Virus record (IMG/VR): IMGVR_UViG_3300032291_003678 | Coordinates: 1-62,224 of that record | Direction: 5' to 3' (one strand) | DNA length: 62,224 bases | Origin: a virus | Taxonomy: Duplodnaviria; Caudoviricetes | In this document: piece by piece, positions 27,162 through 62,224 of the stretch | Numbering within the stretch: position 1 is the stretch's first letter | Layout of the letters: every line of letters starts with the position of its first letter | The notes under the pieces: generated by a model | Told to the model about the DNA's origin: nothing | Seen by the model: the letters and a program-made list of their open reading frames with translations, nothing else | The model's database searches: none | Program-made: the position numbers and the translations under genes

Positions 27162-27163
27162 GA

Positions 27164-27796: not shown

Positions 27797-27800
27797 ATTT

Positions 27801-28259
27801 TTAATTTGTTTTAAAGAATTCTATATAATCTAAGGCTTCAATAAAATCATTTTGAGGGTGATTTTTTAAAGACTTAATATCAGTTTTGTGAGTATAATAA
27901 TCTTCTGTTCCAGGTATTTTAAATTTACCTTTTTCTTCTTCGTTTACTTCGATTGCTTTTACACCTGCCCATTGCCAATCATATTTGCTTTTACCATTTG
28001 CAAATACCGTTCCTTTATCCTGGATATTGATGGTTATTGGGTACCATACACGTTTTTCTGAATCTGTATTTTTGAGATCTTTGTATAGTTCGGGTAGGGC
28101 TTCTTCATAAATTTCAAAGTCAAATTCACTTTCTTTCATTAAATCATTTGTTTGAAAACCACATCCAAAACAGAAATAACTGTTTTTTACTTCGTTTACA
28201 GGAGTGACATAACAAGCATCACTCCCGCAACGTGGGCATATAGATAATTTATCTTTCAT
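27801..28259 (-). CDS. zinc-ribbon protein
   Basis: CPRCG...CFGCG. Confidence 0.75.
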   Translation of the reverse strand: MKDKLSICPRCGSDACYVTPVNEVKNSYFCFGCGFQTNDLMKESEFDFEIYEEALPELYKDLKNTDSEKRVWYPITINIQDKGTVFANGKSKYDWQWAGVKAIEVNEEEKGKFKIPGTEDYYTHKTDIKSLKNHPQNDFIEALDYIEFFKTN

Positions 28260-28276
28260 TTTATTTTATTTTTATA

Positions 28277-29608: not shown

Positions 29609-29617
29609 ATAATCTTA

Positions 29618-48464: not shown

Positions 48465-48698
48465 TTAATTTTTATCAGGTTTAGTAAATAAATGTACTAC
48501 TATTCCTGCAAATAGTATTGGTAATATTGTTATAGAAAAAATATGTCCCATACTACATTCCCACCAATCATTAAATCGTGTGTGATGTATGCACCCAAAT
48601 AAGGAGTGCCCAACAGTGTATATAAACCATCCAAACATTGCTGAGATGTAGATTAGTATTATATACTTAATAAATTCTAAACTTGCTTTTTTATCCAT
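48465..48698 (-). CDS. small membrane protein
   Basis: 2 TM segments. Confidence 0.6.
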   Translation of the reverse strand: MDKKASLEFIKYIILIYISAMFGWFIYTVGHSLFGCIHHTRFNDWWECSMGHIFSITILPILFAGIVVHLFTKPDKN

Positions 48699-48709
48699 AA
48701 CTTTTATTT

Positions 48710-49006
48710 TTAGTCTTTAAATATTGCTATTAGTAAAAGGGCAAACATTGTTATTACTAAGAAAATAGTAACTGTTCCTAAAACTCCACTATCATTACTA
48801 ACTTTCTTTACTACAGTATTATCTTTTGTAGATAAGATGTAAACAGTATTATCTTTTTCAACTACCTTATAAGTGATTGAATCGATACTTGCTAGTTGTT
48901 GTAATTCAACTGTTGTTTCTTGTTTTGGATTTTCTACCTTGATAGGTTTGTTGTTGCAGGAGATCATTGTTGCTCCTAATACTAACATACTAACTAATTT
49001 TTTCAT
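48710..49006 (-). CDS. putative lipoprotein with C-terminal TM
   Basis: MKK..hydrophobic..MISC lipobox; promoter at 49034. Confidence 0.65.
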   Translation of the reverse strand: MKKLVSMLVLGATMISCNNKPIKVENPKQETTVELQQLASIDSITYKVVEKDNTVYILSTKDNTVVKKVSNDSGVLGTVTIFLVITMFALLLIAIFKD

Positions 49007-49069
49007 AACTTTTATTTTTTAAATTTCTTATACTTAAATATACGAAAAGCATTTTAATAAAGCAAACTT

Positions 49070-49873
49070 TTAGATAGGTAATTTTACTTTACTTAATAAA
49101 TTATTTGAAACATGTGTATAAATCTCAGTAGTTTTTGAACTTGAATGACCTGCTATTTTCTGAATTATTCTCAGATCTGTTCCTGATTCTAATAAGTTAG
49201 TAAACGAGGAATGTCTTAGTGTATGTATAGAGGAACTAGAATCTATATATTTTTTATATATTTTCTGGCAACTGCCAGTGGAGTATTGTGTTGAATTTTG
49301 GCCATTGAATAGAAACTCTTTTGGTATATATTGTTTGTAATAATTACGTAACAGTATTAGCACATTCTCAGATAAAGGCACTATTCTATCTTTTCTACCT
49401 TTTGCGTTTCTAATATGGATTAACATCCTCTTTGAGTCAATATCTTCAATTTTTAGATTTACAACCTCAGATACCCTTAATCCTACTGAGTAAGTTAGTG
49501 TTAGGATTGTTTTATGTTTTAAATTATCAATCTTAGATAGTTGACTCTTTATAAAATCTCCATCAATAACTCTTGGGAGTTTCTTTTCAGATTTGGGTCT
49601 CTTAAATGAGACTTTACCGTATTTTTTCCCCAGCACTTCTTTGTATAAGAATCTAATAGAGTTTATGACTTGATTCTGCTGGGAGATGGATGTAAAATTG
49701 TAGCTATCTAGATACTTTTGAAAATCGGAAGAATTACAATGTATTATCTGTTTATCACCTAAACTTTCTAAAAATGGTACTATATGTGATAGGTAGTTAT
49801 TTTTTGTTCTAGGAGAGTAGTTTAGGTATATAAACTTTTCTTCGCAAATCTTTATAATTTTTTGATTTTTCAT
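49070..49873 (-). CDS. IntI-like tyrosine recombinase, short form without the integron-specific insertion
   Basis: N-terminal YSPRTKNNY and SQQNQVINSIRFLYKEVL, RPK..KKLPRV; catalytic GLRVSE, KGRKDR, HTLRHS, AGHSS, TEIYTHV all intact. Confidence 0.92.
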   Translation of the reverse strand: MKNQKIIKICEEKFIYLNYSPRTKNNYLSHIVPFLESLGDKQIIHCNSSDFQKYLDSYNFTSISQQNQVINSIRFLYKEVLGKKYGKVSFKRPKSEKKLPRVIDGDFIKSQLSKIDNLKHKTILTLTYSVGLRVSEVVNLKIEDIDSKRMLIHIRNAKGRKDRIVPLSENVLILLRNYYKQYIPKEFLFNGQNSTQYSTGSCQKIYKKYIDSSSSIHTLRHSSFTNLLESGTDLRIIQKIAGHSSSKTTEIYTHVSNNLLSKVKLPI

Positions 49874-49932
49874 GTTATAGATACTTAATAATTAACAGTC
49901 TATAAAAAGTTACATATATATTATAGTTATAA
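49874..49932 (+). other. candidate attI-like primary recombination site, crossover G|TTATAAA at 49926
   Basis: First GTT core upstream of the integrase start, not preceded by a hairpin arm; short IR TTATAGA...TCTATAA in the spacer. Confidence 0.5.
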
Positions 49933-49947
49933 AACATTAAAACGATT

Positions 49948-50080
49948 TTATAACATCAAATATAAGAAATTTGGGGGCGGAGGAAACAATCGGTATTTTA
50001 AAGACTCCCACAAGCCGATTTCTTTAATTTAGTGGCACGTTGGCGAACCCCAAACTTCTCATATTTGCGTTACGTTATAC
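49948..50080 (+). repeat. attC-like site 1 (133 bp)
   Basis: TTATAAC-AT-CAAATATAAGAAATTTGGGG...CCCCAAACTTCTCATATTTG-CGTTAC-GTTATAC. Confidence 0.85.
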
Positions 50081-50085
50081 AACAT

Positions 50086-50388
50086 TTACTTGAACCAATA
50101 ATAAATTTCCTTTCTTTTATTATTTTCTATTATATAAATGGTAATTTTTCTATCTACAATTTCCAATGAATTAAATTTAAAGTTATTATTTACTACATAA
50201 CCAGTATCTTTATCAATTATAATTAATGATAATTTATTATTTAAATCACCTTCATAATGTGTATCTTTAACAAATAAAATATATTCTGATGGTTGAAATT
50301 CATTTTCATCATCAGTATAATTTTCCATATCTAATATGGTTTTATTAAATAATAAATCGGTTATTTCGTAACTATCTTTTGTTTTCAT
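50086..50388 (-). CDS. cassette 2 ORF, hypothetical
   Basis: Likely start MKTKDS; cassette bounded by GTTATACAAC / GTTGTATAAC. Confidence 0.75.
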   Translation of the reverse strand: MKTKDSYEITDLLFNKTILDMENYTDDENEFQPSEYILFVKDTHYEGDLNNKLSLIIIDKDTGYVVNNNFKFNSLEIVDRKITIYIIENNKRKEIYYWFK

Positions 50389-50400
50389 AAATAAAACGTT

Positions 50401-50492
50401 GTATAACAAGGTATATGTGAAATACCTATAAAATTTATATTAAAATTTAAAGTTCTCTGGTAAGGTACTTCACATATACCCAACCGTTATCG
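50401..50492 (+). repeat. attC-like site 2 (92 bp)
   Basis: GTATAAC-AA-GGTATATGTGAAATACC...GGTACTTCACATATACC-CAACC-GTTATCG. Confidence 0.88.
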
Positions 50493-50741
50493 GTAATTCT
50501 TTTTGGATTTACTATTCGGACATTTTTTATTATGACACAACATTTCACCAAATATTCCAAGAAATCCGTTTCTTGATACTGTTGAGCCGCAATTGGTACA
50601 AAAATGTCCTACGCCTTCTCGTAATACTCTACTTAGTGGGGGTTTTGGTATAGAACTACCGATAACATCAGATATATTCAATTGTTTTTCGTATTCTTGA
50701 ACTATCTGCTTTGCTTTTAAGTAATCTTCTTTTTCTATCAT
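50487..50741 (-). CDS. cassette 3 ORF, zinc-ribbon protein starting inside attC3
   Basis: CTNCG...CHNKKC; stop codon is the TTA of the GTTA core. Confidence 0.75.
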   Translation of the reverse strand: MIEKEDYLKAKQIVQEYEKQLNISDVIGSSIPKPPLSRVLREGVGHFCTNCGSTVSRNGFLGIFGEMLCHNKKCPNSKSKKNYR

Positions 50742-50791
50742 TTGTATTTTAATTTATGTTAAACAACTGAATATATCTGTAACCGTTATAA
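50660..50791 (+). repeat. attC-like site 3 (132 bp)
   Basis: CGATAAC-AT-CAGATATATTCAATTGTTT...AAACAACTGAATATATCTG-TAACC-GTTATAA. Confidence 0.88.
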
Positions 50792-50792
50792 G

Positions 50793-51020
50793 CTATGTTA
50801 GCTCAACTGCATCTAAAAGCATAATTATTTTAAATACCTTAAATCCATCATCTCGCCAAGTACCTTTAAACCTTTCTTTTATCATTCTTACTTCGCTTTC
50901 AGAATACTGTTCGGCAAATTCTACCTCTCCAATATCTGTAAAGTAGTCTAGTTTTTTTCCATCAAACTCATTTCTATTCACGTATTCTCCAAATCTATTT
51001 TTAATTACATATCTTTCCAT
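50793..51020 (-). CDS. cassette 4 ORF, hypothetical
   Basis: Likely start MERYVI; bounded by GTTATAAGCT / AGCTTATAAC. Confidence 0.72.
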   Translation of the reverse strand: MERYVIKNRFGEYVNRNEFDGKKLDYFTDIGEVEFAEQYSESEVRMIKERFKGTWRDDGFKVFKIIMLLDAVELT

Positions 51021-51031
51021 AAAAACACAGC

Positions 51032-51167
51032 TTATAACAACTGCTATATTCAATAGCGGTCATTAGGTTTAATTTAATTATTGTTTTGTACTTGTTATTT
51101 TCGGTCATCAACCGAAGCATTGTTTTGTGTTTTTCCGCTACTGAAATATAGCAGTGAACCGTTATAA
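51032..51167 (+). repeat. attC-like site 4 (136 bp)
   Basis: TTATAAC-A-ACTGCTATATTCAATAGCGG...CCGCTACTGAAATATAGCAGT-GAACC-GTTATAA. Confidence 0.88.
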
Positions 51168-51173
51168 GCCATT

Positions 51174-51350
51174 TTAAGACACCGCACCGATTATAGATTC
51201 AATTCGTTTAATAATGTCCAACGTATTATTATATGTGTGGGCTTTTACTGTATGATTGTAATCAGATAAGTTACCTCTATTCATTGCCTCTGAACGTTCT
51301 TCATTTTCTTTTTTTAGTTTTCTAACTAAATCTTTTAATTCGTTTATCAT
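51174..51350 (-). CDS. cassette 5 ORF, 58 aa (MINELKDLVRKLKKENEERS...), below ORF-track cutoff
   Basis: Translated by hand; fills the cassette bounded by GTTATAAGCC / GGCTTATAAC. Confidence 0.7.
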   Translation of the reverse strand: MINELKDLVRKLKKENEERSEAMNRGNLSDYNHTVKAHTYNNTLDIIKRIESIIGAVS

Positions 51351-51379
51351 TTTAAGTAAGATTTTTGAATAAAAACGGC

Positions 51380-51511
51380 TTATAACAGCATATTGCCAAA
51401 AGTGGCAGTTGTGTGGTTATATGAACATTTTTGCTTCGATTATACATTTGTTTTAAATTCAAGTTTAGTGCTTCGTATTCGCCTCCTTCGGCAATCTGCA
51501 AACCGTTATCA
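51380..51511 (+). repeat. attC-like site 5 (132 bp)
   Basis: TTATAAC-A-GCATATTGCCAAAAGTGGC...GCCTCCTTCGGCAATCTGC-AAACC-GTTATCA. Confidence 0.85.
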
Positions 51512-51517
51512 CCAATA

Positions 51518-51742
51518 CTACCTTAGTGCTTCTAATTCAGATTTTACTTCACTCCAAACTGTTATAGCAGATGGTGTTTCATCATCATAAGTATCCCAAT
51601 ATATGCGTGTTGGATTTTCTTCCAAAATCTTATCCACAATTAGTAATGCTACTTCAATACATTCTTCATAATGTAATGGTGCTTTGAAACTTATTTCTTT
51701 CAATAATGTTTCAGCTTTAAGTTTTACTTCTTCTTTTGTCAT
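51518..51742 (-). CDS. cassette 6 ORF, hypothetical phage protein
   Basis: ALLIVDKIL...WSEVKSEL. Confidence 0.75.
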   Translation of the reverse strand: MTKEEVKLKAETLLKEISFKAPLHYEECIEVALLIVDKILEENPTRIYWDTYDDETPSAITVWSEVKSELEALR

Positions 51743-51776
51743 TTTAATTAAATTTATCGTTAATAATCCGTACTGG

Positions 51777-51871
51777 TGCTAACAGCGTATATATAAGATA
51801 CGCCTACAAGCATTTGTTTATAATTTAATATTTTCGTTAAGGCGTACCTCTCATATACGCAACCGTTAGCA
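51777..51871 (+). repeat. attC-like site 6 (95 bp)
   Basis: TGCTAAC-A-GCGTATATATAAGATACGCCT...AGGCGTACCTCTCATATACGC-AACC-GTTAGCA. Confidence 0.87.
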
Positions 51872-51877
51872 ACAAGG

Positions 51878-52153
51878 CTAAGAAAGCTCCGTGCGAAGTT
51901 TCTCAAAGTATTTAATTGCTTTCTCGATACTCTCTTTGTCTCGTTTGATATTAAAGAAAATATTGGTTTCTGAACCGCTTGCAGTTCGAATAGTTCGCTG
52001 TGTATTTGGTTCGATATATTGAAACATTACGTTTATAAAATCGCTTGTAATGTCTTCTTTTTCACCAATCCACATTCCTTTTTCTTGGTTCTGTTTACCT
52101 AAGTAAATCTTTTCTGTTAGTGGCGAATAGCCAATTCCTTTTTTGATACTCAT
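51878..52153 (-). CDS. cassette 7 ORF, hypothetical phage protein
   Basis: GYSPLTEKIYLG...W.GEKEDIT; bounded by GTTAGCAAC / GTTGCTAAC. Confidence 0.78.
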   Translation of the reverse strand: MSIKKGIGYSPLTEKIYLGKQNQEKGMWIGEKEDITSDFINVMFQYIEPNTQRTIRTASGSETNIFFNIKRDKESIEKAIKYFEKLRTELS

Positions 52154-52198
52154 TTTATTTTAGTTATTAAGTTAAAAATCAATTTAATAAAGCCCAGT

Positions 52199-52290
52199 TG
52201 CTAACACCGTGTATAAGCAATGGCACACAAGCGGTGTAGGTAATTTGAAAGTGTGTATAAGTGCCACTGCTCATACACGAAACGTTAGCG
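52199..52290 (+). repeat. attC-like site 7 (92 bp)
   Basis: TGCTAAC-AC-CGTGTATAAGCAATGGCAC...GTGCCACTGCTCATACACG-AAAC-GTTAGCG. Confidence 0.88.
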
Positions 52291-52296
52291 GTCAGG

Positions 52297-52641
52297 CTAA
52301 GAACACACAACCTTATCAAGAACCTTTGTAAAATGAGTTCTTAAATCTTCAAGGTGCTTTTCGGTCGCTGACAACTTACCCTGCAACAAGTTTTCGTTTT
52401 CGTTCTTAATCCCAACACGACTATTATAGTCGCCAACAGCCTTTAGAAAATCATTAGCAAAATGCCTATTCATTTCTAATAACGGTATTAAAGGTTCTGC
52501 CGCTGCGTTCATTGGGTCAAGAGTTTGCTCAATTAGTAATCCGTCTTTTTGACCGATAATAGCAATCCTATTGCCTTGCTGTGTTTTTAGATACATTCTA
52601 ACAGTCATTGACTGATAATCTTCTTGAAATATAAATTCCAT
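52297..52641 (-). CDS. cassette 8 ORF, hypothetical
   Basis: GKLSATEKHLEDLR; bounded by GTTAGCGGT / ACCGCTAAC. Confidence 0.78.
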   Translation of the reverse strand: MEFIFQEDYQSMTVRMYLKTQQGNRIAIIGQKDGLLIEQTLDPMNAAAEPLIPLLEMNRHFANDFLKAVGDYNSRVGIKNENENLLQGKLSATEKHLEDLRTHFTKVLDKVVCS

Positions 52642-52688
52642 TTTGTTGTTATTAAACTTTGGACTTCTAAAAGCGGAGAAGCCCGAAC

Positions 52689-52818
52689 CGCTAACACTTG
52701 CTTTGCAAAATGGCGGGTGAAGTGCTAATTTGAACCCTTGTGCCTTGAATAAACTTTAGTGCTTAACGAACATTTGTGCCTTGAAAACCGCCACTTCGCA
52801 AAGCAGATGCCGTTATAG
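52689..52818 (+). repeat. attC-like site 8 (130 bp)
   Basis: CGCTAAC-ACT-TGCTTTGCAAAATGGCGG...CCGCCACTTCGCAAAGCA-GATGCC-GTTATAG. Confidence 0.88.
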
Positions 52819-52831
52819 GTAATAAAATTTA

Positions 52832-52999
52832 CTACCCTTTGTTTTTAAATTGTTTTATATATCTATCACCAACTTCGTTCCAAAGTCGTCTTGCTTGTTC
52901 GTAATCACCGACACTTATTTCTGCTTCAAATATCACTTCAAAGTGTTCTTCTGTACACTCCTTTGCAACTTCTTTTTTTATTTCATCTATTGTTTTCAT
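52832..52999 (-). CDS. cassette 9 ORF, 55 aa (MKTIDEIKKEVAKEC...), below ORF-track cutoff
   Basis: Translated by hand; bounded by GTTATAGGTA / TACCTATAAC. Confidence 0.7.
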   Translation of the reverse strand: MKTIDEIKKEVAKECTEEHFEVIFEAEISVGDYEQARRLWNEVGDRYIKQFKNKG

Positions 53000-53019
53000 A
53001 ATTCGTAAATTTTACATAC

Positions 53020-53116
53020 CTATAACAAAGTGTATAAGTAATGTGGCTTAATTAATTTTGTTCTTTGATTAAATGTGTGAGTAAAGCCACACTACTCATA
53101 CACTCAACCGTTATAA
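53020..53116 (+). repeat. attC-like site 9 (97 bp)
   Basis: CTATAAC-AA-AGTGTATAAGTAATGTGGCTT...AAGCCACACTACTCATACACT-CAACC-GTTATAA. Confidence 0.88.
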
Positions 53117-53120
53117 GAAA

Positions 53121-53402
53121 TTATTTTTCCAATTTTTTATAATTCTTTGCATATAAGTATATCCCTAACCATATCCAAATTCCTGTTAATATACCAGTTA
53201 GTCTAACAAAAATTGGAAACTCAAAAGAAAAAATTAATGAGATATGTGTGATTATTACACCTAAGTGTAATCCTAATAAAAATAATGGTATTATAATGAA
53301 CCACAGTACAAATTTTTCTTTTGTTAAATAACTACTTATAACAACAGATATACCCAATTCGGGTCTCCGTATTTCATTTAAGTTTTCTACGTTTTTATTC
53401 AT
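53121..53402 (-). CDS. cassette 10 ORF, 2-TM membrane protein starting inside attC10
   Basis: Two hydrophobic helices; N-terminus encoded by the attC loop and arm. Confidence 0.7.
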   Translation of the reverse strand: MNKNVENLNEIRRPELGISVVISSYLTKEKFVLWFIIIPLFLLGLHLGVIITHISLIFSFEFPIFVRLTGILTGIWIWLGIYLYAKNYKKLEK

Positions 53403-53465
53403 TTTATCTTTTATTTAAGTTATTACTATTTAATCCCGAACTTGGTATATCTGCAACCGTTATGT
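53336..53465 (+). repeat. attC-like site 10 (130 bp)
   Basis: TTATAAC-AA-CAGATATACCCAATTCGGG...CCCGAACTTGGTATATCTG-CAACC-GTTATGT. Confidence 0.88.
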
Positions 53466-53496
53466 GAGATTGTTACGATTCGTTTTCAAAAGAAAT

Positions 53497-53667
53497 TTAG
53501 TCAATAAGAATTATTTCACTCACTTTGACGAAAAGAAATACTTTATCGTTTTGGTCGCTAAATATTTGAAAATCGGCACACCCTTTTATTATATTCTGCT
53601 TAAGAATTTCAGCCGTTTCTTGTAATATTTCTTTTTTTGTTCCGTTTTTAAAATGAATTGTCATCAT
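53497..53667 (-). CDS. cassette 11 ORF, 56 aa (MMTIHFKNGTKKEI...), below ORF-track cutoff
   Basis: Translated by hand; bounded by GTTATGTGAG / CTCACATAAC. Confidence 0.7.
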   Translation of the reverse strand: MMTIHFKNGTKKEILQETAEILKQNIIKGCADFQIFSDQNDKVFLFVKVSEIILID

Positions 53668-53696
53668 AATGTTTTGTTTTAAAAACCCACAACCTC

Positions 53697-53829
53697 ACAT
53701 AACAAGTGTTTGGCAAAAAAGCGGGTTTGGTTATTAATTTAATGTTTGTTTTTTATTTGTATGTTTTAGGCTTAATCGAAGTTTTAGGCTTGTTTTTCCG
53801 CTTCTTCGCCAAGCACCGTAACGTTAGCG
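53697..53829 (+). repeat. attC-like site 11 (133 bp)
   Basis: ACATAAC-AA-GTGTTTGGCAAAAAAGCGG...CCGCTTCTTCGCCAAGCAC-CGTAAC-GTTAGCG. Confidence 0.86.
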
Positions 53830-53830
53830 G

Positions 53831-54043
53831 TCATTTTTTAGAAACGATGTCGTTACCCCATTCATCCTCTTTTAAATCGCCTGTATATTCTGTAACTTGA
53901 TAACTAACTTTCATTTTTACAATAAACCCAGCTTTACAACATTCAGAAGCTATTAATTTTGAGCCACCAACAGAATAAGTTTCTAAATTTCTATAAACAA
54001 CATTTGGTATTTTTAATTCCTTTTTACAATTTGGACATTCCAT
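53831..54043 (-). CDS. cassette 12 ORF, zinc-finger-like
   Basis: CPNC...ECC. Confidence 0.75.
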   Translation of the reverse strand: MECPNCKKELKIPNVVYRNLETYSVGGSKLIASECCKAGFIVKMKVSYQVTEYTGDLKEDEWGNDIVSKK

Positions 54044-54055
54044 AATTAAAACGAG

Positions 54056-54189
54056 TTATAACAGCAATTACACGCTATTGCTAGATTAGGTTTAATTCAA
54101 TGTTCAGTTATAGTCTTTCAATTCCTTGTTAAACTGAAAGATTGTTTTGTCCTTTTACTCAACAGACGTGTAGTTGCGTAACGTTAGCA
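54056..54189 (+). repeat. attC-like site 12 (134 bp)
   Basis: TTATAAC-A-GCAATTACACGCTATTG...CAACAGACGTGTAGTTGC-GTAAC-GTTAGCA. Confidence 0.83.
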
Positions 54190-54213
54190 CCAATACTACT
54201 TAGTTTTCTAATA

Positions 54214-54252
54214 CTTAAATATACGAAGAAAAGCTTACCTAAGCAAGCTTTT
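54214..54252 (-). promoter_or_regulatory. phage promoter with fused upstream terminator, firing into the cassette array
   Basis: CTTAAATATACGAA followed by hairpin AAAAGCTTACCTAAGCAAGCTTTT; no ORF between it and attC12. Confidence 0.8.
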
Positions 54253-54258
54253 TCTTAT

Positions 54259-54678
54259 TTATTTTACAATAATTTTATATCCTGTATCAATACTTTCAAA
54301 TCGTTCTACAATCATTTGTTCAAACTCCTCACCATACCTACCCATATTATCTCCACAACAAATGTAAGGACCACCAGAAGGATCTACCATATTAATATTA
54401 TCTTTATTTGATGTAACTAAATTTAGGTATTTTACATGAGGGTATTCTCTTTTATCCTCATCGTACTCGTGTACAGCTTTTTTAAAATGATCTAAAGACA
54501 TTCTTTCTCCATTGTAAAAGTTTTCTATATGATCTTTACAATATTTGTCGTATGCTTTAAGATAATCATTAGGATAACCAATTCTACAGAAATTAAAATT
54601 CCCTTCCCATAAAATATTTTTATCACTATCTAGTGTGAAAGTGAATTGATCACCGTATCTGTTTTTGTATGTGTTCAT
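54259..54678 (-). CDS. hypothetical phage protein (KNRYGD...VDPSGGPYI)
   Basis: 139-aa ORF. Confidence 0.75.
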   Translation of the reverse strand: MNTYKNRYGDQFTFTLDSDKNILWEGNFNFCRIGYPNDYLKAYDKYCKDHIENFYNGERMSLDHFKKAVHEYDEDKREYPHVKYLNLVTSNKDNINMVDPSGGPYICCGDNMGRYGEEFEQMIVERFESIDTGYKIIVK

Positions 54679-54797
54679 TTCTTTTCTTTTATAATTTCTA
54701 TTAATTATTTGATATCCCTAATATAGCACCTATTAATAACACTCCTGCTGCCATACCATAGAAAAAAGCAACAGTTAAATCATATCTATCATAGTTA

Positions 54798-55193
54798 TTA
54801 CTTTCCATTATTTCTGTTTTTTACAATTTCTATTAGTTTCTTAAGACATTCAAGTTCCGCTTCTTCGTAGGTTTTAAAATTACTACCATAAGATTTACCA
54901 AAATTGTCATTTTCAGTTTGTATAAAACCTCCCCAGAAAATACCTAAATCTTTTTGCTTTTTTAAAGGTAAAGAAAATTCAATATTTGAATACTTTTCTC
55001 TAAACCATCTAAATGCTTGTTGGTATAGTGGTGCATCACACTCAATAGTAAAATTATCTGCTTCAATATCTGTATCTAAATGTAAGTATGGTTCTCCACC
55101 ATCCCATTGTCTATATGTTGCAATACAAGGTTCATCAAATCCTAATTCTTTTAAAGCTAATGCTTCTGCGTAAGGTATAAATTCTTTTTCCAT
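54798..55193 (-). CDS. hypothetical phage protein (ALKELGFDEPC...APLYQQAFRWFREK...TYEEAE)
   Basis: 131-aa ORF. Confidence 0.75.
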   Translation of the reverse strand: MEKEFIPYAEALALKELGFDEPCIATYRQWDGGEPYLHLDTDIEADNFTIECDAPLYQQAFRWFREKYSNIEFSLPLKKQKDLGIFWGGFIQTENDNFGKSYGSNFKTYEEAELECLKKLIEIVKNRNNGK

Positions 55194-55879
55194 TATATAT
55201 CTATTTCAATTATATTTCCGTTACTACTTAGTGTACCAAATTTTCCATCTGTTACAACTGATCCATTACTAAACCAAGTATCACATGTACTTAGTTTTTG
55301 CATTCCAGCATTGACTATATCCTTACAGTTGTGAATGTGACCAAATAAGTGATATTGTGGTTTTACTTGTAATACTTTGTTTAAAAGTGATTTATCACCA
55401 CAACATTCCAAATAATTGTCTCTATCGTATGATTTATCTAAAATACCTTTTGGTGGACCGTGTGTTACTAAAATGTCAACATAAGATGGTATTGCCTGAG
55501 GCCAGTACCTGTCTAACTTAACTCTGTCTTTCATGAAAGCCCAGTTACCAAAGTTTGGTGTGTATGGGTTTCCATAAATGAATAGTCCTTGTATTTCAAC
55601 TAAATCATCTTCTAAGTAGTGAATATTATAGTCTTCAAAATCTTTTTTAGTAACTAATTTTTTTTCAATAGAGGTATCGTGGTTACCTGCAACGTATATT
55701 TTATGCTTGATGGGTAAACTTTTATACCAATGAATAAAATTTCTTACTTCTGGTTCGTTGTTGTAAGGATCTCTTGGGTTACTACAGTCACCTGAGTGTA
55801 TAACCATATCGATATCTTTAGGAATCGTTAATTGATCGTGATACGTGTGGGTATCCGAAATGTGCCAAATTTTTTTCAT
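55193..55879 (-). CDS. calcineurin-like metallophosphoesterase
   Basis: SDTH, HSGD, AGNHD, THGPP, FGHIH. Confidence 0.92.
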   Translation of the reverse strand: MKKIWHISDTHTYHDQLTIPKDIDMVIHSGDCSNPRDPYNNEPEVRNFIHWYKSLPIKHKIYVAGNHDTSIEKKLVTKKDFEDYNIHYLEDDLVEIQGLFIYGNPYTPNFGNWAFMKDRVKLDRYWPQAIPSYVDILVTHGPPKGILDKSYDRDNYLECCGDKSLLNKVLQVKPQYHLFGHIHNCKDIVNAGMQKLSTCDTWFSNGSVVTDGKFGTLSSNGNIIEIDI

Positions 55880-55945
55880 AACTTTTATTTTTTATTTATA
55901 CTTAAATATACGAAAAAAGACTTACCGAAGCAAGCCTTTTGTCAT

Positions 55946-56944
55946 TTATTTTATTCCTAATGCCTTTTTTACTAAATCTCTCATATAAGTACTCTTATTG
56001 AAATTGCTTGTTGACATGCATGTTATCTCCCAAAAATCCTTTATTGATAATGCTTTTACGTTTTGCATAACATATTCGTGTGCTTCTTCAACTGTTGAGA
56101 AGTATTTTCTTTCTGAATATTGTCCAGCTCCTGAATGTGCTTTCATTGTGTGTATGCTAAAGTCCGTATCTACGAAGTAGTACATGTCTCCTTCTTTAAT
56201 ATTAACCCCATCCTCTGTTGTAAAAAGAACTTTATTTTTTTCAATATAATCTAAAGCTGCTTCTTCTGTTAGGAAGTATGCATTTAGGTTTGAGTGAAAT
56301 TTCATTCCTGGTACTGATATAAAAGAATCGTAATATGAATTATCTTTCCTCACCCACCATACTTGGTCTCCTGCAAAAATATCTTTTCCATCGTGTGTTA
56401 TGAACAGTGGTTGTTTTATTTGTTTAATAGCATGAGTGATATGAGAACTACCTGAATTGTAATTAAGCCATATTCCTTCTTTCATTGAGGAACATTTTGT
56501 AACCAAAGTCATACTATCTATAGTTTTTATAGAACCATATTCATATACTTTTGCTCTATCACCTACTGTAAATACTTCTCCATCTGATAGACGTTTTACT
56601 GAATGTATTTTGTATAGTGGATTTTTTAGAATTGCCTCTGTAGAGTATGGTCCTGTTACAGGATATCCATTTACATTTCTACTCCATCCTTCTCTAAATT
56701 TTGTCCAAAGATCTGTTACACCTGAATCCTGTTTGAATGATATAATTTCAAATTCATGGTCAACTACTTCTTGCCAGAATTCTGGGTTGTTTTCTACTTC
56801 ATTATTGTCTAATTTTCTACAATCTGTGTAATTTCCAGAACATGGAGAATATCCATAATTTCTGTCTCCAGTACCTACTTCCATTCCAGGTTCCCAATCT
56901 CTTGCTAAACTTGGGTATTTTTGTATTAGTTTGTATTTTTTCAT
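55946..56944 (-). CDS. hypothetical modular protein with tandem C-terminal repeat
   Basis: LFITHDGKDIFAGD..YFLTEEAA and LFTTEDGVNIKEGD..YFSTVEEA. Confidence 0.75.
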   Translation of the reverse strand: MKKYKLIQKYPSLARDWEPGMEVGTGDRNYGYSPCSGNYTDCRKLDNNEVENNPEFWQEVVDHEFEIISFKQDSGVTDLWTKFREGWSRNVNGYPVTGPYSTEAILKNPLYKIHSVKRLSDGEVFTVGDRAKVYEYGSIKTIDSMTLVTKCSSMKEGIWLNYNSGSSHITHAIKQIKQPLFITHDGKDIFAGDQVWWVRKDNSYYDSFISVPGMKFHSNLNAYFLTEEAALDYIEKNKVLFTTEDGVNIKEGDMYYFVDTDFSIHTMKAHSGAGQYSERKYFSTVEEAHEYVMQNVKALSIKDFWEITCMSTSNFNKSTYMRDLVKKALGIK

Positions 56945-57189
56945 AATCTCTTTCTTGAGTTTTTTAAATAAATTGCTTGTTGCCTGATTCCAAATTCTCT
57001 TGTAAGAACATTTGAAGGTGCTTCATCCTCCATAAAGAATGACAATCCAATAATCATTTCACTGGCATCGAACTTTCTTTCTCTACCTTGAATCATTCCA
57101 TCTTTATCAGTAAATTTAGTAATTAGATCTGCCAGTTGTGCCTGAGTTTCGCATTGATTAACTGCTTGCCATTTTTGTAATTCTGTCAT
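56941..57189 (-). CDS. hypothetical protein
   Basis: LTREFGIRQQA. Confidence 0.7.
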   Translation of the reverse strand: MTELQKWQAVNQCETQAQLADLITKFTDKDGMIQGRERKFDASEMIIGLSFFMEDEAPSNVLTREFGIRQQAIYLKNSRKRL

Positions 57190-57201
57190 AACTTTTATTT
57201 T

Positions 57202-57741
57202 TTATTTCCAATCAATTTTAGGACAATACTTGTTGTATTTTGCTTTAATGAATTCAGCAGTCATATTAACCTTAGCTTTCTTAGTTACCCACTTCTTTTG
57301 GTTTTGATCAAAATAAGAGTCATCTTTTGTTATATACTCTCTTAAACAACCAACTCCATGTATAGTACCAACAATAATTGCAGCTGCCCAAATCATACAA
57401 CCCATAAATTGACAGAACTCCCAAAAAGTTTTTGGTTCAATATGAACAAACAATCCAATAATTGAAGTAATTGCGCAAGCAGCAAGCCATATTGCTATAT
57501 AAACACCTGCACTAATACCTAATCTAGCTCCTACACTTCTATCTCCATTCTCATATTGTTTATCCAATAGATCGTAGATAACTACTGGAATTGAAAATAC
57601 TGTGTAAGGAATGATTGTTAAATACATCAATACTACTTTCCAGAAGTATGGGCATAAGTTGTTTGGTAATCCTTGGTTTTCACTAACACCATAAAACCAT
57701 TTGTACAATTTGACTGTTGTTGAATTTTGATCTAATGTCAT
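57202..57741 (-). CDS. membrane protein (3 TM)
   Basis: LCPYFW, hydrophobic helices; promoter at 57773. Confidence 0.75.
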   Translation of the reverse strand: MTLDQNSTTVKLYKWFYGVSENQGLPNNLCPYFWKVVLMYLTIIPYTVFSIPVVIYDLLDKQYENGDRSVGARLGISAGVYIAIWLAACAITSIIGLFVHIEPKTFWEFCQFMGCMIWAAAIIVGTIHGVGCLREYITKDDSYFDQNQKKWVTKKAKVNMTAEFIKAKYNKYCPKIDWK

Positions 57742-57787
57742 AACTTTTATTTGTTTTTTAAATTAATAATACTTAAATATACGAAAT

Positions 57788-58147
57788 TTATTTTGATAAA
57801 ACAAATAATTCATACAAAGAATTTTCAGTTTTAAACTTAATATAATCCTCTCTCTGCTCTACAATCTCAGTTACTGTAGTTGTTTGCCAAGTAAAGAATG
57901 CGTTAAATGGGGACATAATTAAACTTCTCCCAACTGCTATTTCTTTATGTTGTGATTTGAATTTACCATCTTCATTAAACTCTAACCACATTATATTTGG
58001 AGATTGTTTTGTTAGACCATCTCTTTCTCTTACTAGTTTGTACTGCATATATTCTGTTCCGAATATTTCTTCAAATGATTTGTTTAATTCTAAGTTACCA
58101 TCCTCGTTTTGAGTTAGTAGTACTTTTGGTTGTGCTCCTCCTATCAT
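57788..58147 (-). CDS. hypothetical phage protein
   Basis: WQTTTVTEI...FKTENSLYEL. Confidence 0.75.
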   Translation of the reverse strand: MIGGAQPKVLLTQNEDGNLELNKSFEEIFGTEYMQYKLVRERDGLTKQSPNIMWLEFNEDGKFKSQHKEIAVGRSLIMSPFNAFFTWQTTTVTEIVEQREDYIKFKTENSLYELFVLSK

Positions 58148-58150
58148 AAT

Positions 58151-58561
58151 TTATACTGTATGTTCAATTCTTACTCTTACACAATTCTGAGGTAATCGGT
58201 GAATGTGTCTGTAGTTGTTAATGTATCCCATCATGTTTGCACTACCAACTGCATTTGCAGAATGTATTACAACATCAACAACAGGAGCTCCATCCAACCA
58301 TTGATTAACCAACCATTTTGTGCAATCCATTCCAGTCTTTTCCGTAATGTTATCATAGTTCAATTCATAATTGTGATACACGTTTGAATGCCATTCAGCC
58401 ATTGCTGATGGACCTAAATCGTGATCTAATGATATTATCTCAATGTTTTCTAATCCATAGTAAGTAACTTGATCTACAAATTGCTCATAGTTTCTAACTA
58501 CTTTCCATTCTGGATCAATTGGTGTTCTTACGTCGTCTAAATATATTTTAACTTTACTCAT
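58151..58561 (-). CDS. cyclic-phosphate-processing receiver-like domain protein
   Basis: IYLDDVR, ISLDHDLG, TGMDC..WL, HSANAVG. Confidence 0.75.
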   Translation of the reverse strand: MSKVKIYLDDVRTPIDPEWKVVRNYEQFVDQVTYYGLENIEIISLDHDLGPSAMAEWHSNVYHNYELNYDNITEKTGMDCTKWLVNQWLDGAPVVDVVIHSANAVGSANMMGYINNYRHIHRLPQNCVRVRIEHTV

Positions 58562-58728
58562 CTTTTTCTTGTTTTTCTAATTCATCTAACCCATCTACTA
58601 CTGTTACGTCCCAGTCTTTAAAATCTTCGTCAGGTTTGTTATTAATTTTATTCACATACCAAATCCCAGCTACCTCTATACCTACGAGTATTATTATTAA
58701 TATTATTGTTATAATTATTTCCATATGT

Positions 58729-59346
58729 TTAATCCCACCAGCGATTTATATTCTCATTTACTATTTTGAATAGTAGATCTTGAGCACGTTTTTGGTTGAT
58801 ATGGCAAATGTTCATAGCAATGATTCTTTTCATATCAGATTCATCTCTTCCATCTAAAGTAAATGGACCTGCTCCTTTTAACACTTTTCGATATATTAGT
58901 TTATACTTTTTAAACAACTCATCATACTTTTCCCATACCTCTTGTGAGTTGTATAGGGAAGATCCTGGCCTGTCTTTGCAAGGTGTAAACCATACTCTGT
59001 CTTTATGGTAATCCATGTATTCAGTAGCATATGTTTCATCTTGAACTAATTGGATTAATTTAACACATAGTCTCATTCTTTTGGCATCAAGTTGTGCTCT
59101 GGTATGTCTGTCTTTAGTACCAATCTCGTTTGCTTGTGCTTTGAGTTTATGTTTTAGTACTTCAAAGATAAAGTGGTCATCCCAGTGTCTGTCCTTCCAT
59201 ATAACTGGAAACCAGTAAATGATGTTTTGAATACCCCATTTAATTTCTTTGTGTAGGTATCTACCATCATGTTCCCACCACATCAATATCCTTTTGAATA
59301 TGTTTGGTCTTGGTCTGTTTTTTAAGTCTTCGAAAAAATCTTCCAT
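58729..59346 (-). CDS. hypothetical phage protein (IWKDRHWD...WWD)
   Basis: 205-aa ORF. Confidence 0.75.
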   Translation of the reverse strand: MEDFFEDLKNRPRPNIFKRILMWWEHDGRYLHKEIKWGIQNIIYWFPVIWKDRHWDDHFIFEVLKHKLKAQANEIGTKDRHTRAQLDAKRMRLCVKLIQLVQDETYATEYMDYHKDRVWFTPCKDRPGSSLYNSQEVWEKYDELFKKYKLIYRKVLKGAGPFTLDGRDESDMKRIIAMNICHINQKRAQDLLFKIVNENINRWWD

Positions 59347-59642
59347 TATTTCTGCAATTTAAGTTTTCTTGGATTAACTTCAAATAAATTTCCTTCTGAA
59401 TCTAAATATCCAGCATAGAACGAACTATCTATTTTTATGATAACATCATACCCTAATACCATGTTAATACCATTTCTAGAAGTATGTGTTGTATCTACTA
59501 CTTTATATTCTCCTTTTTGGAGTACCGGTTGTTGTCTGCAGCTTACTACTATTAACATTAGTATTAGCATTGCTACAAATGTAATTGTAAATATTTTAAT
59601 TTGTTTCATATTATTTCTTTTTAAATTTGTTTCCATTTCCAA
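59346..59642 (-). CDS. putative lipoprotein
   Basis: Hydrophobic stretch then VVSC. Confidence 0.6.
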   Translation of the reverse strand: MEMETNLKRNNMKQIKIFTITFVAMLILMLIVVSCRQQPVLQKGEYKVVDTTHTSRNGINMVLGYDVIIKIDSSFYAGYLDSEGNLFEVNPRKLKLQK

Positions 59643-59926
59643 TCATCACTTGATTCTGACTTAACTTGACAAGAGAAGATTTGATATCCTGCTCTCCAGT
59701 ATGTTAAGTGAATAACCCCATCAGGACTTTCAGCTAATAGCTCGATATTGCTTGGTGGTGTTTCTTCAAATACTGTTTTCCATCTGTTTTTTTCTTGTGC
59801 AAGTTCAAAACCTCTTATAAAAGAATTTTTACAAGATAATTTAAAACGCTCTTTTGTAGCTGCAAACTTTTCTAGTTCAATTAAGGCATTTGCTTTAGCA
59901 GCTTTATCAATTTCTTCTTGTTTCAT
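59621..59926 (-). CDS. hypothetical protein (DUF551-like C-terminus)
   Basis: WKTVFEETPP...W. Confidence 0.6.
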   Translation of the reverse strand: MKQEEIDKAAKANALIELEKFAATKERFKLSCKNSFIRGFELAQEKNRWKTVFEETPPSNIELLAESPDGVIHLTYWRAGYQIFSCQVKSESSDDWKWKQI

Positions 59927-61199
59927 AAACTATCTTTTTAAATTGTTCAATAAACTTTATAATATCTCTTCTTTTATAACCTGGCTTAGTTGGATGTTCA
60001 ACAAGAGATTCAAGGATGTTTATAACATCTTCCTCACTATAACTTTTTTCTTGTTGCCCTTTAATTTCTTTAACAAGTGTGTCTAACATATCAGAAGAAA
60101 ATTTTCTAGCGTCGAACTCCTGTTGCCATTTAGCTCCTTGTATAAAACAATATCTCCTTGATTTATCTTTTTCTTCTGTTCTAAACTGTTTAGCTTCAAC
60201 AAATCTTTCAGCAGCTTCTTCAAGTGTTTCTTGTTTAGGTTCTCTATTGAATAACTGGTCATCCATATCTTTTTCTGCAAAATACATAAATTCAAGACAT
60301 TTATAAACACTCATTCCACTTTTACAACAATCTGAAATGTATTGTTTATACTTTTCAAAATCTTCATCAGTGTACTTGTAATCATCTTCTGTACGTCTGT
60401 CTTTTATTCTTTGTAGGTATTGTTCAAGTGTTTCTTGTTTATGTTTGTCAATTAACTCTTTCACACCTTTCTTTTTTTCTTCATTGAATATGTCTTCTAA
60501 AGTAATTTCTTGTTCAGGTCCACAATCACAAGTTATTGTATGACCACAATAGCATTTGATAAGTTTAGGTTCTATCTTATCAAGCATTTGAGCCACTAAA
60601 GAAGTTTTATATCCTAACACTACATCTTTAGGTTCTTCTTGTGGTAATACTACATTTCCTTTACACCAACCATAGTCATACAATCCTAACTCTTCATCTG
60701 ATTTCATCATATCGATGAGGTGTTGCTTTTGTTGTTCTTTTGGAATGATGATTTTGTAATCTCTCAAATCACTTTTACCTTCCCAATTTAAAGAACCATC
60801 TCCACTAATAGCGTTTACTTCAGCAATAGAAGTATTTATTCCGTGAAACCTCTCAACTTCAACCTCCTCACAACTTGGATTCTTAACAAACCATTCTAAA
60901 AACTCATCATCAATAGCTTGTACACCATCTGCAATTAAGTCTTGGTCTGTTGTTAAGATGATTTTTTTACAACTTGGTGCTTTATCTGCTAATTCAAACA
61001 TTGCTCCATTAGAAACAACATTATTATCTCTGTTTAACCAATAACTATCCCATTCAATTTCTTCATCAGAAGTGATGTAGATGTTTTGATACTTCGTAGA
61101 AGGAACATTCAAATGGCTTTCAGTAGTTAAAAATAAATTATTTTTATAACAATATAACCTACTTGGTTTGTCTGTTGGTAATACATGAATGTTTTTCAT
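59907..61199 (-). CDS. mosaic modular phage protein
   Basis: Repeated EPK/KQETLEE blocks; modules shared with 1745..1972. Confidence 0.8.
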   Translation of the reverse strand: MKNIHVLPTDKPSRLYCYKNNLFLTTESHLNVPSTKYQNIYITSDEEIEWDSYWLNRDNNVVSNGAMFELADKAPSCKKIILTTDQDLIADGVQAIDDEFLEWFVKNPSCEEVEVERFHGINTSIAEVNAISGDGSLNWEGKSDLRDYKIIIPKEQQKQHLIDMMKSDEELGLYDYGWCKGNVVLPQEEPKDVVLGYKTSLVAQMLDKIEPKLIKCYCGHTITCDCGPEQEITLEDIFNEEKKKGVKELIDKHKQETLEQYLQRIKDRRTEDDYKYTDEDFEKYKQYISDCCKSGMSVYKCLEFMYFAEKDMDDQLFNREPKQETLEEAAERFVEAKQFRTEEKDKSRRYCFIQGAKWQQEFDARKFSSDMLDTLVKEIKGQQEKSYSEEDVINILESLVEHPTKPGYKRRDIIKFIEQFKKIVYETRRN

Positions 61200-61546
61200 A
61201 ACCTTTGTTTTTAAATTTATACTTAAATATACGAAATTTATTTTAATTTACCAACTTTTCTATGCGATAAGTTTTAAGATTAAAAAATATATCACCCCCT
61301 ATACACTCGTACTGTTGATCGTTTATAGTCATGATTTTACCATGATTTTTGTGTGAACGAATGGATTTTAGTGTTGGTGAAAGATCTTCACAGTATGTTC
61401 TTTTACCTCTCATAATCTACTTATTACTCCAATAATTAAAAATATTCCTAACCAAAGAATTGCACTTACAAATACCAAAGGGAATGTATCTACATTGTTA
61501 GCATCATATTTAAAAAATAGTATTTTAAATAGTATTTTAAGTCTAC

Positions 61547-61777
61547 TCATAGTCCTAGATATTTCTTAATACTTTCGTTACAGTAGTCTATATAGTGTAA
61601 TAACTCCTCTTGTACTACTTCTGAGGATCTTTCGGTTAAGTATTTACGAGCAGCTCTCTGTCTTTGTACAAAAAGTGAATGGGCTGGAGAGGTTATCGGT
61701 ACTGGTACTTCTAGTTGAGCTATAGTATTTATTTTTCTGTGTAGATCGATTTGATGTGAAAGATTTGATTCGCTCAT
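61547..61777 (-). CDS. hypothetical protein
   Basis: ORF in operon. Confidence 0.65.
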   Translation of the reverse strand: MSESNLSHQIDLHRKINTIAQLEVPVPITSPAHSLFVQRQRAARKYLTERSSEVVQEELLHYIDYCNESIKKYLGL

Positions 61778-61778
61778 C

Positions 61779-62039
61779 TTATTTAATATTTGATTCTGGG
61801 TAGGAGTTTAGGATTGAATTTGTATCTATAGAATAGCCATAGTCAGTTATTTGTACTTTTTCACTAGCTGCTTTTAAAGCTTCTGCTACATGCATTTTTG
61901 CAAATTCAATCATTGCTCTTTTTATATTTTCTTGAGCAAATACGTAAGCATCTCTGTGAATTATTAAATTAAAACTACCTATTTTAGGTTCTTTAAAAAC
62001 GTTATTTTTTACTAAAACTTCTTCTGCTGTTGGTATCAT
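61779..62039 (-). CDS. hypothetical phage protein (AMIEFAKMHV..ALKAASEK)
   Basis: Promoter at 62067. Confidence 0.75.
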   Translation of the reverse strand: MIPTAEEVLVKNNVFKEPKIGSFNLIIHRDAYVFAQENIKRAMIEFAKMHVAEALKAASEKVQITDYGYSIDTNSILNSYPESNIK

Positions 62040-62224
62040 AACTTTTATTTTATTTGTTTCTAATACCTAAATATACGAAAAAAAGCTTGCCTAAGCAAGC
62101 CTTTTATTAATTATTTTTAAAATATTTTACTTAATAGTGACCATTTGCATTATGGCTGGGTCTAGATATTTTGGGATAAGTTCTCTATAAACTCTACCTC
62201 TCTTATCACTTGTTGGATCAATTA

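Follow-up and report, generated by a model that had tools for sequence, protein, structure and literature searches.

An integron-like array of gene cassettes with inverted reading frames beside a short tyrosine recombinase gene in a large phage

Introduction

In classical integrons, as set out in PMC5027507, the crossover AAC lies on the bottom strand, whereas the open reading frames (ORFs) of the cassettes lie on the top strand and are expressed by the promoter Pc at attI. The locus described here raises the question of how such an array works when its ORFs run the other way. It lies at positions 49070-54256 of a 62,224-nucleotide (nt) stretch of DNA from a virus of the Caudoviricetes (IMG/VR record IMGVR_UViG_3300032291_003678), which is hereafter called the window, and it comprises a gene for a tyrosine recombinase and a row of small ORFs that are separated by hairpin-forming sites. 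We asked which strand and which end of the row take part in recombination, and from where the ORFs are read.

We consider it probable that positions 49070-54256 form one unit of phage-borne, integron-like gene capture with inverted ORFs, turnover at the attI end and read-through transcription from a terminator-promoter at 54212-54256. Sequence comparison established the anatomy of the array, the cassette boundaries, the position of attI, the turnover at attI and the clade-wide inversion of the ORFs. The phage clade departs from both integron rules, namely the IntI-specific domain and the entry of sense cassettes by Pc, yet it shows recent and exact cassette turnover. Standard integron finders, which are keyed to IntI, would overlook the whole system.

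Architecture of the cassette array

The array (49926-54182) was found to consist of 12 cassettes, 11 of which carry one ORF each, and it is set upstream of the recombinase gene and co-oriented with it (Table 1). A preliminary description of this DNA had placed all of the array ORFs on the minus strand, and this held for 11 of 11 ORFs between 50086 and 54043 as well as for the integrase gene (49070-49873). Its count of 11 ORFs also stood, but the number of cassettes had to be raised from 11 to 12, as the one nearest to the integrase (49926-50073) is ORF-less. An ORF-less cassette at attI was also present in two related loci, L049 and L026. Between its own GTTA box and the next TAAC, this cassette keeps just the leader-like stretch ATCGTTTTAATG, and this 12-mer recurs in other arrays as the loop of 46-nt mini-sites (e.g., L015:56-101 and L061:8003-8048).

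The leaders between the GTTA box and the ATG were about 15-60 nt long. In cassettes 3 and 10, the start codons (53402 and 50741) were observed in the hairpin loops, with the arms at 53345-53363/53435-53453 and 50669-50687/50761-50779, respectively. The ORFs of these two cassettes cross the 3' arm and the GTTA box, so that the recombination site is partly coding; in cassette 10, the stop codon TAA also falls within the TAAC box.

No family of known function was found for 10 of the 11 array ORFs, and the ORF at 50793-51053 was screened solely in its TTG-started frame. Among the 10 array ORFs compared with PHROGs, two matched families, both of unknown function, and Pfam returned DUF7446 for one ORF and nothing for those at 53497-53667 and 53831-54043. 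The array shows that large phages keep a private and rapidly exchanging store of small early genes, and host take-over or counter-defence are the functions for which these genes are likely candidates. In many unrelated cassettes, a recurrent end motif, ..ATCGAAGCAC..TGTAGCAyTG..yATAAC, was also noticed just ahead of the crossover box. It occurs in the window at 51505-51540 and 54183-54215 and in the attI-proximal ends of the related loci L042, L010, L039, L045, L047, L068, L079 and L001.

Cassette boundaries and polarity

The TAAC and GTTA boxes read the same on both strands, so that the motifs alone give no polarity, and related loci were therefore compared. IMG/VR held 224 relatives of the recombinase, and the comparison was made on the 80 loci kept, whose recombinases are 63-88% identical to that of the window. 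Complementarity of the R-box around the ORFs (8-10 nt) was tried as a test of polarity and rejected, as it is symmetric and fits either reading.

Like cassette interiors were found in 64 pairs, of which 56 came from arrays that match to either side and seven were informative; the one excluded pair, L031_4/L032_4 (0.88 and 1.00), came from arrays that share their integrase-proximal part. In seven of seven informative pairs, the site upstream of the ORF was shared (identity of 0.76-1.00), whereas the downstream site was not (0.26-0.61). Cassette homology ran from the ATAACG of the upstream site to the TAACG of the next, with the break at yTAAC/G (here and below, the slash within a motif marks the junction). 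By these alignments, the cassette in gene sense is composed of hairpin, leader and ORF followed by TAAC, and it is cut in the AAC box that abuts the stop codon of the ORF; the hairpin therefore precedes its own ORF in the array. The ORFs had been described as antisense to the canonical cassette polarity, and the alignments agree with this: the crossover AAC and the ORFs occupy one strand, and the hairpin stands on the 5' side of the ORF.

Turnover at the attI end

The 170 nt ahead of the recombinase ATG were aligned across the loci. The alignment revealed a consensus, aTAAC/TAttaTATATa (also seen as yTAAC/TATwwTATATA), at 50-60 nt before the integrase ATG in 62 distinct loci. The cassette side of this TAAC differed in every locus and was in most cases the 3' terminus of an ORF. 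In the window, the conserved junction falls at 49926/49925, which bears out the array start near 49926 given earlier, and the homology of the window to the related loci ends near 49930.

A search for RNA runs with this phage returned none. Contigs from public runs (X2, X5, X6 and X7) were used for presence and junctions only; X7 is labelled RNA-Seq and is probably DNA. The X2 contig covering 49019-49929 ends at the attI junction. The X5 contig begins at 49927, matches the ORF-less cassette up to 50087 and is then unlike the window, and the X7 contig covers 53459-53700 of cassette 2.

Locus L045 was found to equal locus L047 plus exactly one 797-nt cassette, which sits at attI between ...GAGCATAAC and TATCATATATC. 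The recombinases of the two loci are 100% identical, and their downstream backbones are 97.6% identical. Additionally, a cassette of 956 nt (99.9% identical) has an internal position in L015 and stands directly at attI in L031 and L032, and a four-cassette block farther out is 100% shared. Comparative genomics had been proposed as the way to see which end of the array changes, and the single-cassette differences and the relocated cassettes were both found to fall at attI, which corresponds to 49926 in the window.

Structure of the hairpin sites

Each of the 12 sites is an attC-like imperfect palindrome, which on the plus strand starts with yTAAC-A and ends with AACC-GTTAy, as first described. 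Folding on the minus strand had been claimed as well, and it was the better fold in 11 of the 12 sites, with totals of -193.7 kcal/mol for the minus strand and -168.3 kcal/mol for the plus strand under DNA parameters. As DNA, the window hairpins reach -11 to -23.5 kcal/mol each. On the minus strand, TAACG has 16 copies within the 4.3 kb of the array, compared with 32 over the remaining 58 kb. We used a custom, pairing-based scanner that looks for AAC...GTT with 16-nt arms and counts G.T as a pair. With it, 10 sites in the array paired at 15-16 of 16 positions, compared with 6-17 weak hairpins (at least 13 of 16) per 62 kb, on both strands, in shuffled windows.

Across the loci, the spacer asymmetry was constant, AAC being followed by 4-5 nt and GTT preceded by 1-2 nt; the combination (4,1) was found 121 times and (5,1) 86 times. 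RNAalifold analysis of 63 sites of the class of about 85 nt revealed a 5-bp box helix (TAACG/TGTTA), a bulge of 3-4 nt in the 5' arm and a 17-bp stem, with compensatory changes in 15 of 22 pairs. The paired cells in these 63 sites amounted to 97.2%, compared with 76.0% in shuffles (0 of 500 reached the observed value) and 34-56% with the partners slid; this percentage, which has to be held against our case, is inflated because the sites were chosen by a pairing-based scan, whereas the compensatory changes are not. By this comparative evidence, the hairpins are selected structures.

Two G.T wobbles were near-invariant (61/63 and 60/63 sites; columns 23/107 and 41/93, as in site 4 at 53024-53112), and the pairs adjoining them were observed to covary freely. 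On the complementary strand, the wobbles turn into A.C mismatches, which offers a plausible basis for the choice of strand. A count of G.T against A.C in the stems (547 vs 19) was rejected as a strand test, as the scanner accepts G.T and biases it, and the numbers of sites passing on each strand were used instead. The AAC and GTT cores were invariant or nearly so, the RYYY flank was loosely kept as yTAAC, and the site lengths clustered at 80-89 and 110-129 nt, classical attC sites being 57-141 bp long. No extrahelical L'' bases were seen opposite the cleaved AAC; the stems are free of bulges, and the asymmetry consists of the bulge of 3-4 nt directly 3' of AACG on the same arm. A search of 48500-55500 against Rfam, which holds no attC model, gave no matching family and two sub-threshold matches of miRNA families on the hairpins.

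Inversion across the phage clade and the opposite polarity in bacteria

Most loci with sequence upstream of the recombinase gene had hairpin arrays there, on the strand of that gene, and 66 of the 80 IMG/VR loci show at least one hairpin site. After the removal of duplicates, the 489 kb upstream of the recombinase genes held 204 sites that passed on the sense strand only, 64 on both strands and seven on the antisense strand only, and the corresponding numbers for the 667 kb downstream were 24, three and 18. The longer ORF lay on the recombinase strand in 180 of 192 distinct viral units. As judged from these loci, the inversion of the ORFs is a rule of the whole phage clade and not an accident of the array in the window.

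The bacterial set was composed of one genome per species, and its nearest recombinases are 41-51% identical to that of the window, plus one partial match of 67% on a 2-kb contig. At least two hairpins of the same architecture were found in 14 of 80 bacterial loci, where the arrays are downstream of the recombinase gene and the opposite strand is the one that folds. In 20 of 22 bacterial units (nine of the 14 loci gave units), the ORFs were on the recombinase strand and antisense to the strand that folds. In locus L155, on the chromosome of Flavobacterium saccharophilum, a cassette is duplicated (99% over 1115 nt) with the hairpin after the ORF: each copy runs from AAC/GTTAGTGG, ahead of the ORF, to AACGTTA, behind the hairpin, which is the canonical order of ORF and then attC. 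On this evidence, one type of site is used with opposite gene polarity in the bacteria and in the phage clade. The two groups amount to a natural experiment on the choice of strand and orientation: phages and Bacteroidota chromosomes share the hairpin architecture and have opposite gene polarities.

Bacteroidota chromosomes and metagenome-assembled genomes (L155:6001-12435, L118, L119, L085, L142, L154 and L115) were observed to encode short recombinases that lack the insertion and are 41-47% identical to that of the window. The loci of the L155 type look like a bacterial integron-like class with the inverted-integrase layout that would not be called complete by IntI-based finders.

The recombinase

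The recombinase matched Pfam Phage_integrase (5e-34) and also SAM_4. Among NCBIfam models, all of its matches were under the curated cut-offs, with 171 bits for XerA_Arch, 138 for XerC and 137 for XerD, and the integron integrase model TIGR02249 matched in two stretches with 154.7 bits against a cut-off of 265. The catalytic core of tyrosine recombinases is present, as LRVSE, HTLRHS, GHSS and IYTH align with the XerC-like structure 4a8e and with IntI4. Upon alignment with IntI4 (2a3v), residues 39-173 of the recombinase fell on 46-175 and residues 208-263 on 258-313, which leaves 34 residues where IntI4 has 82; the gap is the IntI-specific insertion. According to this alignment, the phage enzyme is without that insertion, the additional domain around patch III. 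A preprint on archaeal integrons (bioRxiv 10.1101/2022.02.06.479319) presents the insertion as a defining feature that is necessary for recombination.

The promoter motif at the distal end and proposed transcription of the array

The promoter motif TACTTAAATATACGAA was found in 38 matches with up to three mismatches, compared with 3.4 expected, and the copies cluster in the regions of small ORFs at 1-16 kb and 49-62 kb. Its core was on the gene (minus) strand in 33 of 33 copies. The motif resembles the Bacteroidetes -33/-7 type of promoter. As read by eye, the core copies often have TTTGG about 20 nt upstream and an aaaGTTATG start 20-45 nt downstream. The core element TTCGTATATTTAAGTA was located in its 33 copies within 1-16100 and 49000-62100, before small ORFs, and about a third of the copies have a fused upstream terminator hairpin, as in a moron-like modular early region.

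The preliminary description had reported that a promoter with a fused terminator and with no gene of its own points into the array from its distal end, and that no copy of the motif occurs inside the array or before the integrase gene. Each of these points was upheld. By eye, the copy at 54227 alone is without an ATG-led gene within about 60 nt, and the first start, at 54043, is 184 nt away. The terminator hairpin folds as RNA with -12.8 kcal/mol (z of -3.5), and it has too few G-C pairs for a consensus terminator scan; similar hairpins precede the copies at 55914 and 62079. Between the copies at 54212-54227 and 49031-49046, the motif is absent.

When the array was scanned on both strands, neither the phage core motif nor the strict host-type -33/-7 consensus was found, and a search of the plus strand with both revealed no Pc-like promoter reading out of attI. 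No terminator ahead of the integrase gene was found in the array, and no hairpin (-1.3 kcal/mol) was found between the integrase stop and the motif copy at 49031-49046. In five related phage types that share the motif, no copy lies inside the arrays. A sigma-70 consensus scan gave 25 sites against 28 expected, this consensus being uninformative for a host of the Bacteroidota type. Transcription from 54227, with an inverted distance gradient and with the integrase as the last cistron, would fit this layout. As a general rule, the array and the recombinase gene seem to form the tail of a phage transcription unit, and the direct fusion of promoter and array in the window probably follows a deletion.

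The public contigs X2, X5 and X6 were observed to join different copies of the motif (49048/55869, whose shorter side measures 25 nt, 49025/57771 and 48453/55898). This suggests either relatives without promoter-bounded modules, including the integron, or repeat-mediated paths of the assembly.

Proposed mechanism and alternatives

In the explanation that we favour, the short tyrosine recombinase would join folded hairpin sites with a double-stranded attI directly ahead of its own gene. The site on the gene strand is composed of 5'-yTAAC-G, a 3-nt bulge, a stem of 17-22 bp, the loop, the returning stem and T-GTTAy-3', and we infer that the recombined strand is the gene-sense strand because the strand that bears AAC folds better. 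Contrary to the classical arrangement, the ORFs face attI and the integrase, and cassettes enter or leave at attI (49926), the downstream end of the transcription unit. The stretch at 54212-54256 is the sole recognisable promoter for the 11 ORFs and the integrase, and read-through would reach the attI-distal cassettes first and the integrase last.

Several observations weigh against parts of this proposal. The polymerase would meet twelve stable hairpins on its way, none of them with a U-tract. A relaxed host-type match, TTG-N19-TATATTTG, extends from 49989 to 49957 in cassette 12 and points at the integrase; it might drive the integrase alone, such matches occurring at about chance frequency. 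In related phages, several ordinary genes intervene between the nearest promoter copy and the array, so that the direct fusion of promoter and array is local and not a rule of the family, and its position at the junction with a truncated cassette may reflect an accident of deletion rather than design. The difference between L045 and L047 could be an insertion or an excision, its direction not being polarisable. Finally, the strict -33/-7 consensus was present in the first 180 nt of 4.9% of 305 cassettes of the clade, compared with 0.7% in antisense and 0.4% in shuffles, and a minority of cassettes may therefore be self-driven.

This last enrichment leads to the alternative that each cassette has its own promoter in the hairpin or leader and is expressed independently of the far promoter, with no gradient. 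The hairpin and leader travel 5' of the ORF, so a promoter could travel along, and cassettes move between phages with different promoter motifs. However, 95% of the 305 cassettes are without the strict consensus, and none of the 12 cassettes in the window has either this consensus or the phage core motif. The leaders are also short, and the conserved parts of the hairpin are the stem and the boxes, with no -7-like element. We consider this alternative unlikely.

A role mainly as RNA, in which the hairpins process, stabilise or gate the translation of the transcript and recombination is secondary or past, is in our view quite improbable. It would account for the better folding of the transcribed strand (sense-only sites far outnumber antisense-only sites upstream of the recombinase), for the near-invariant wobbles, which are G.U in RNA, and for the start codons in the loops of cassettes 3 and 10. 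Against this, the exact cassette-level differences at AAC boxes between near-identical phages show that DNA recombination is ongoing. The hairpins of the bacterial relatives fold on the non-coding strand, so that the strand bias tracks the geometry of recombination and not transcription. The RNA and recombination roles are also compatible with each other.

The preliminary description had offered docking at the promoter end (54183-54213) as an alternative, with an array that grows by the promoter and an integrase that is merely at the far end. Such an arrangement would restore the classical layout, in which the newest cassette is best expressed; a TAAC box is present at 54183-54186, and a backbone contig of the X2 relative matches the window down to 54192 and then diverges. 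Nevertheless, the 29 nt that separate the promoter from the first TAAC box resemble the end of cassette 7 (GTAGTATTGGTG-TAACG is identical), which makes this end a cassette remnant with no conserved site. The conserved junction of the 62 loci adjoins the integrase, the one-cassette differences and relocations fall there, and related phages have ordinary genes next to the promoter-side end of the array. We judge docking at this end to be very improbable, and this part of the preliminary description is not upheld.

Small phage ORFs are often separated by hairpins, and Rfam gave no matching family, but a row of immobile genes split by terminator-like or repetitive extragenic palindrome (REP)-like palindromes is refuted by the comparative data and scarcely credible, as identical cassettes recur beside different neighbours, with their breaks at a shared 5-nt core, the arrays accompany a conserved recombinase and attI in 80 of 80 integrase-fetched loci (66 with at least one site), and 275 hairpin sites in 489 kb upstream contrast with 45 in 667 kb downstream.

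Returning to the integron-like unit with read-through from the distal promoter, we also put forward, tentatively and as a doubtful extension, that it represents a distinct phage-adapted integron class in which the 5' hairpins, with the conserved G.U wobbles and the loop-borne start codons of certain cassettes, also gate or protect the cistrons as RNA and the recombinase is made only after the array has been read through. If this were true, shuffling of the cassettes and expression of the array would be linked; taken with the bacterial relatives, it would also mean that integron-type capture needs no IntI insertion and works with either gene polarity.

Comparison with known systems

The phage loci resemble classical integrons (class 1 and Vibrio cholerae) in several respects. 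A tyrosine recombinase gene has attI at its 5' end, the integrase is transcribed opposite to the recombination polarity of the array, and one-ORF cassettes are bounded by imperfect palindromes with AAC and GTT, with crossover at the AAC box and cassettes gained or lost at attI. The sites are about 50-140 nt long and homogeneous within the clade, like those of sedentary chromosomal integrons. In contrast to classical integrons, the recombinase is without the IntI-specific insertion and the host is a phage; the sites have a 3-nt bulge beside the cleaved AAC in place of the L'' extrahelical bases; and the ORFs share the strand of the crossover AAC and point at attI and the integrase, with no Pc-like promoter found.

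Modules between pdif sites are also alike, in that a recombinase of the Xer-like family acts on small modules between recombinase sites. The pdif sites are 28-bp double-stranded sites of XerC-XerD with alternating orientation, whereas the phage sites are hairpins of 50-140 nt, all direct, with an attI used by a dedicated recombinase.

In the integrons of Treponema and other Spirochaetes, as described in PMC4889954 and bioRxiv 10.1101/2022.02.06.479319, the integrase gene is flipped and the order of ORF and then attC is kept. The phage loci are similar to these in having cassette ORFs that run in the same direction as the integrase gene, in both groups a departure from the divergent layout of classical integrons. 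They differ in that it is the ORFs that are flipped in the phages, the integrase standing in its classical place with respect to attI: the viral arrays lie upstream of the integrase, and their polarity runs away from it. The Treponema-like layout is shared by the bacterial relatives L155, L118 and others.

For the Bacteroidetes, IntegronFinder 2.0 lists nothing beyond In0 elements and a single complete integron (Salinibacter). Qi et al. (2023; PMC9892861) used IntegronFinder and reported components of the canonical IntI/attC kind, namely Vibrio chromosomal integron fragments, a P1 phage with a class 1 mosaic and clusters of attC that have no integrase, with tests by IntI1. Their phage integron components are like the present system in having phage-borne attC-type sites and cassettes. 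A term search of the main text of PMC9892861 gave no occurrence of Flavobacter-, Bacteroid- or Cellulophaga. Full-text literature searches returned no description of this phage system, the supplementary tables, which possibly list related matches, lying outside their coverage.

Table 1. Features of the integron-like unit in the window and its source record.
Feature	Position	Strand	Description
Source record			IMG/VR virus, 62,224 bases; linear class; CheckV completeness estimate 41%
Next promoter-motif copy	49031-49046	minus	24 nt past the integrase stop; opens the unit with ORF 48710-49006
Tyrosine recombinase	49070-49873	minus	267 aa, Xer/IntI-like (Pfam, NCBIfam, structure alignment); last gene of the unit
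attI-like docking site	49874-49925	minus	Junction TATAAC/TATAAT at 49926/49925; extends up to the integrase ATG
Cassette 12, nearest attI	49926-50073	minus	ORF-less: hairpin site 12 and leader remnant ATCGTTTTAATG
Cassette 11	50074-50485	minus	Hairpin site 11, then ORF 50086-50409 (likely ATG 50388)
Cassette 10	50486-50784	minus	Hairpin site 10, then ORF 50487-50741
Cassette 9	50785-51160	minus	Hairpin site 9, then ORF 50793-51053
Cassette 8	51161-51504	minus	Hairpin site 8, then ORF 51174-51350
Cassette 7	51505-51864	minus	Hairpin site 7, then ORF 51518-51742
Cassette 6	51865-52283	minus	Hairpin site 6, then ORF 51878-52153 (DUF7446)
Cassette 5	52284-52811	minus	Hairpin site 5, then ORF 52297-52641
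Cassette 4	52812-53109	minus	Hairpin site 4, then ORF 52832-52999
Cassette 3	53110-53458	minus	Hairpin site 3, then ORF 53121-53402, ATG in hairpin loop
Cassette 2	53459-53822	minus	Hairpin site 2, then ORF 53497-53667
Cassette 1, farthest from attI	53823-54182	minus	Hairpin site 1, then ORF 53831-54043
Remnant of a truncated cassette 3' end	54183-54211	minus	Ends in CTAAC box, joined to the promoter
Terminator-promoter	54212-54256	minus	Motif from 54227 to 54212; terminator-like hairpin from about 54256 to 54229

The phage and its other genes

The window phage is large and of a freshwater type, and it has twelve exchangeable mini-gene cassettes beside its own small recombinase. The window is AT-rich (GC of 24-37%), and its minus strand carries nearly every gene. 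By DNA, the closest phages in GenBank were Flavobacterium phages, with 74.6% identity over 9% of the query in a single metallophosphoesterase gene. Phages in GenBank were considered as a source of comparator arrays and set aside, as the DNA match was confined to that one gene and the best integrase match was 38.8% (Cellulophaga phage Ingeline). The window codes for a family-B DNA polymerase, a clamp-loader-like ATPase, sugar-modification enzymes and a thymidylate synthase. The genes for the modification of sugar nucleotides form a block at 18771-31042, and a GroEL-type chaperonin (Cpn60_TCP1, 6e-62) is encoded at 34144-35784.

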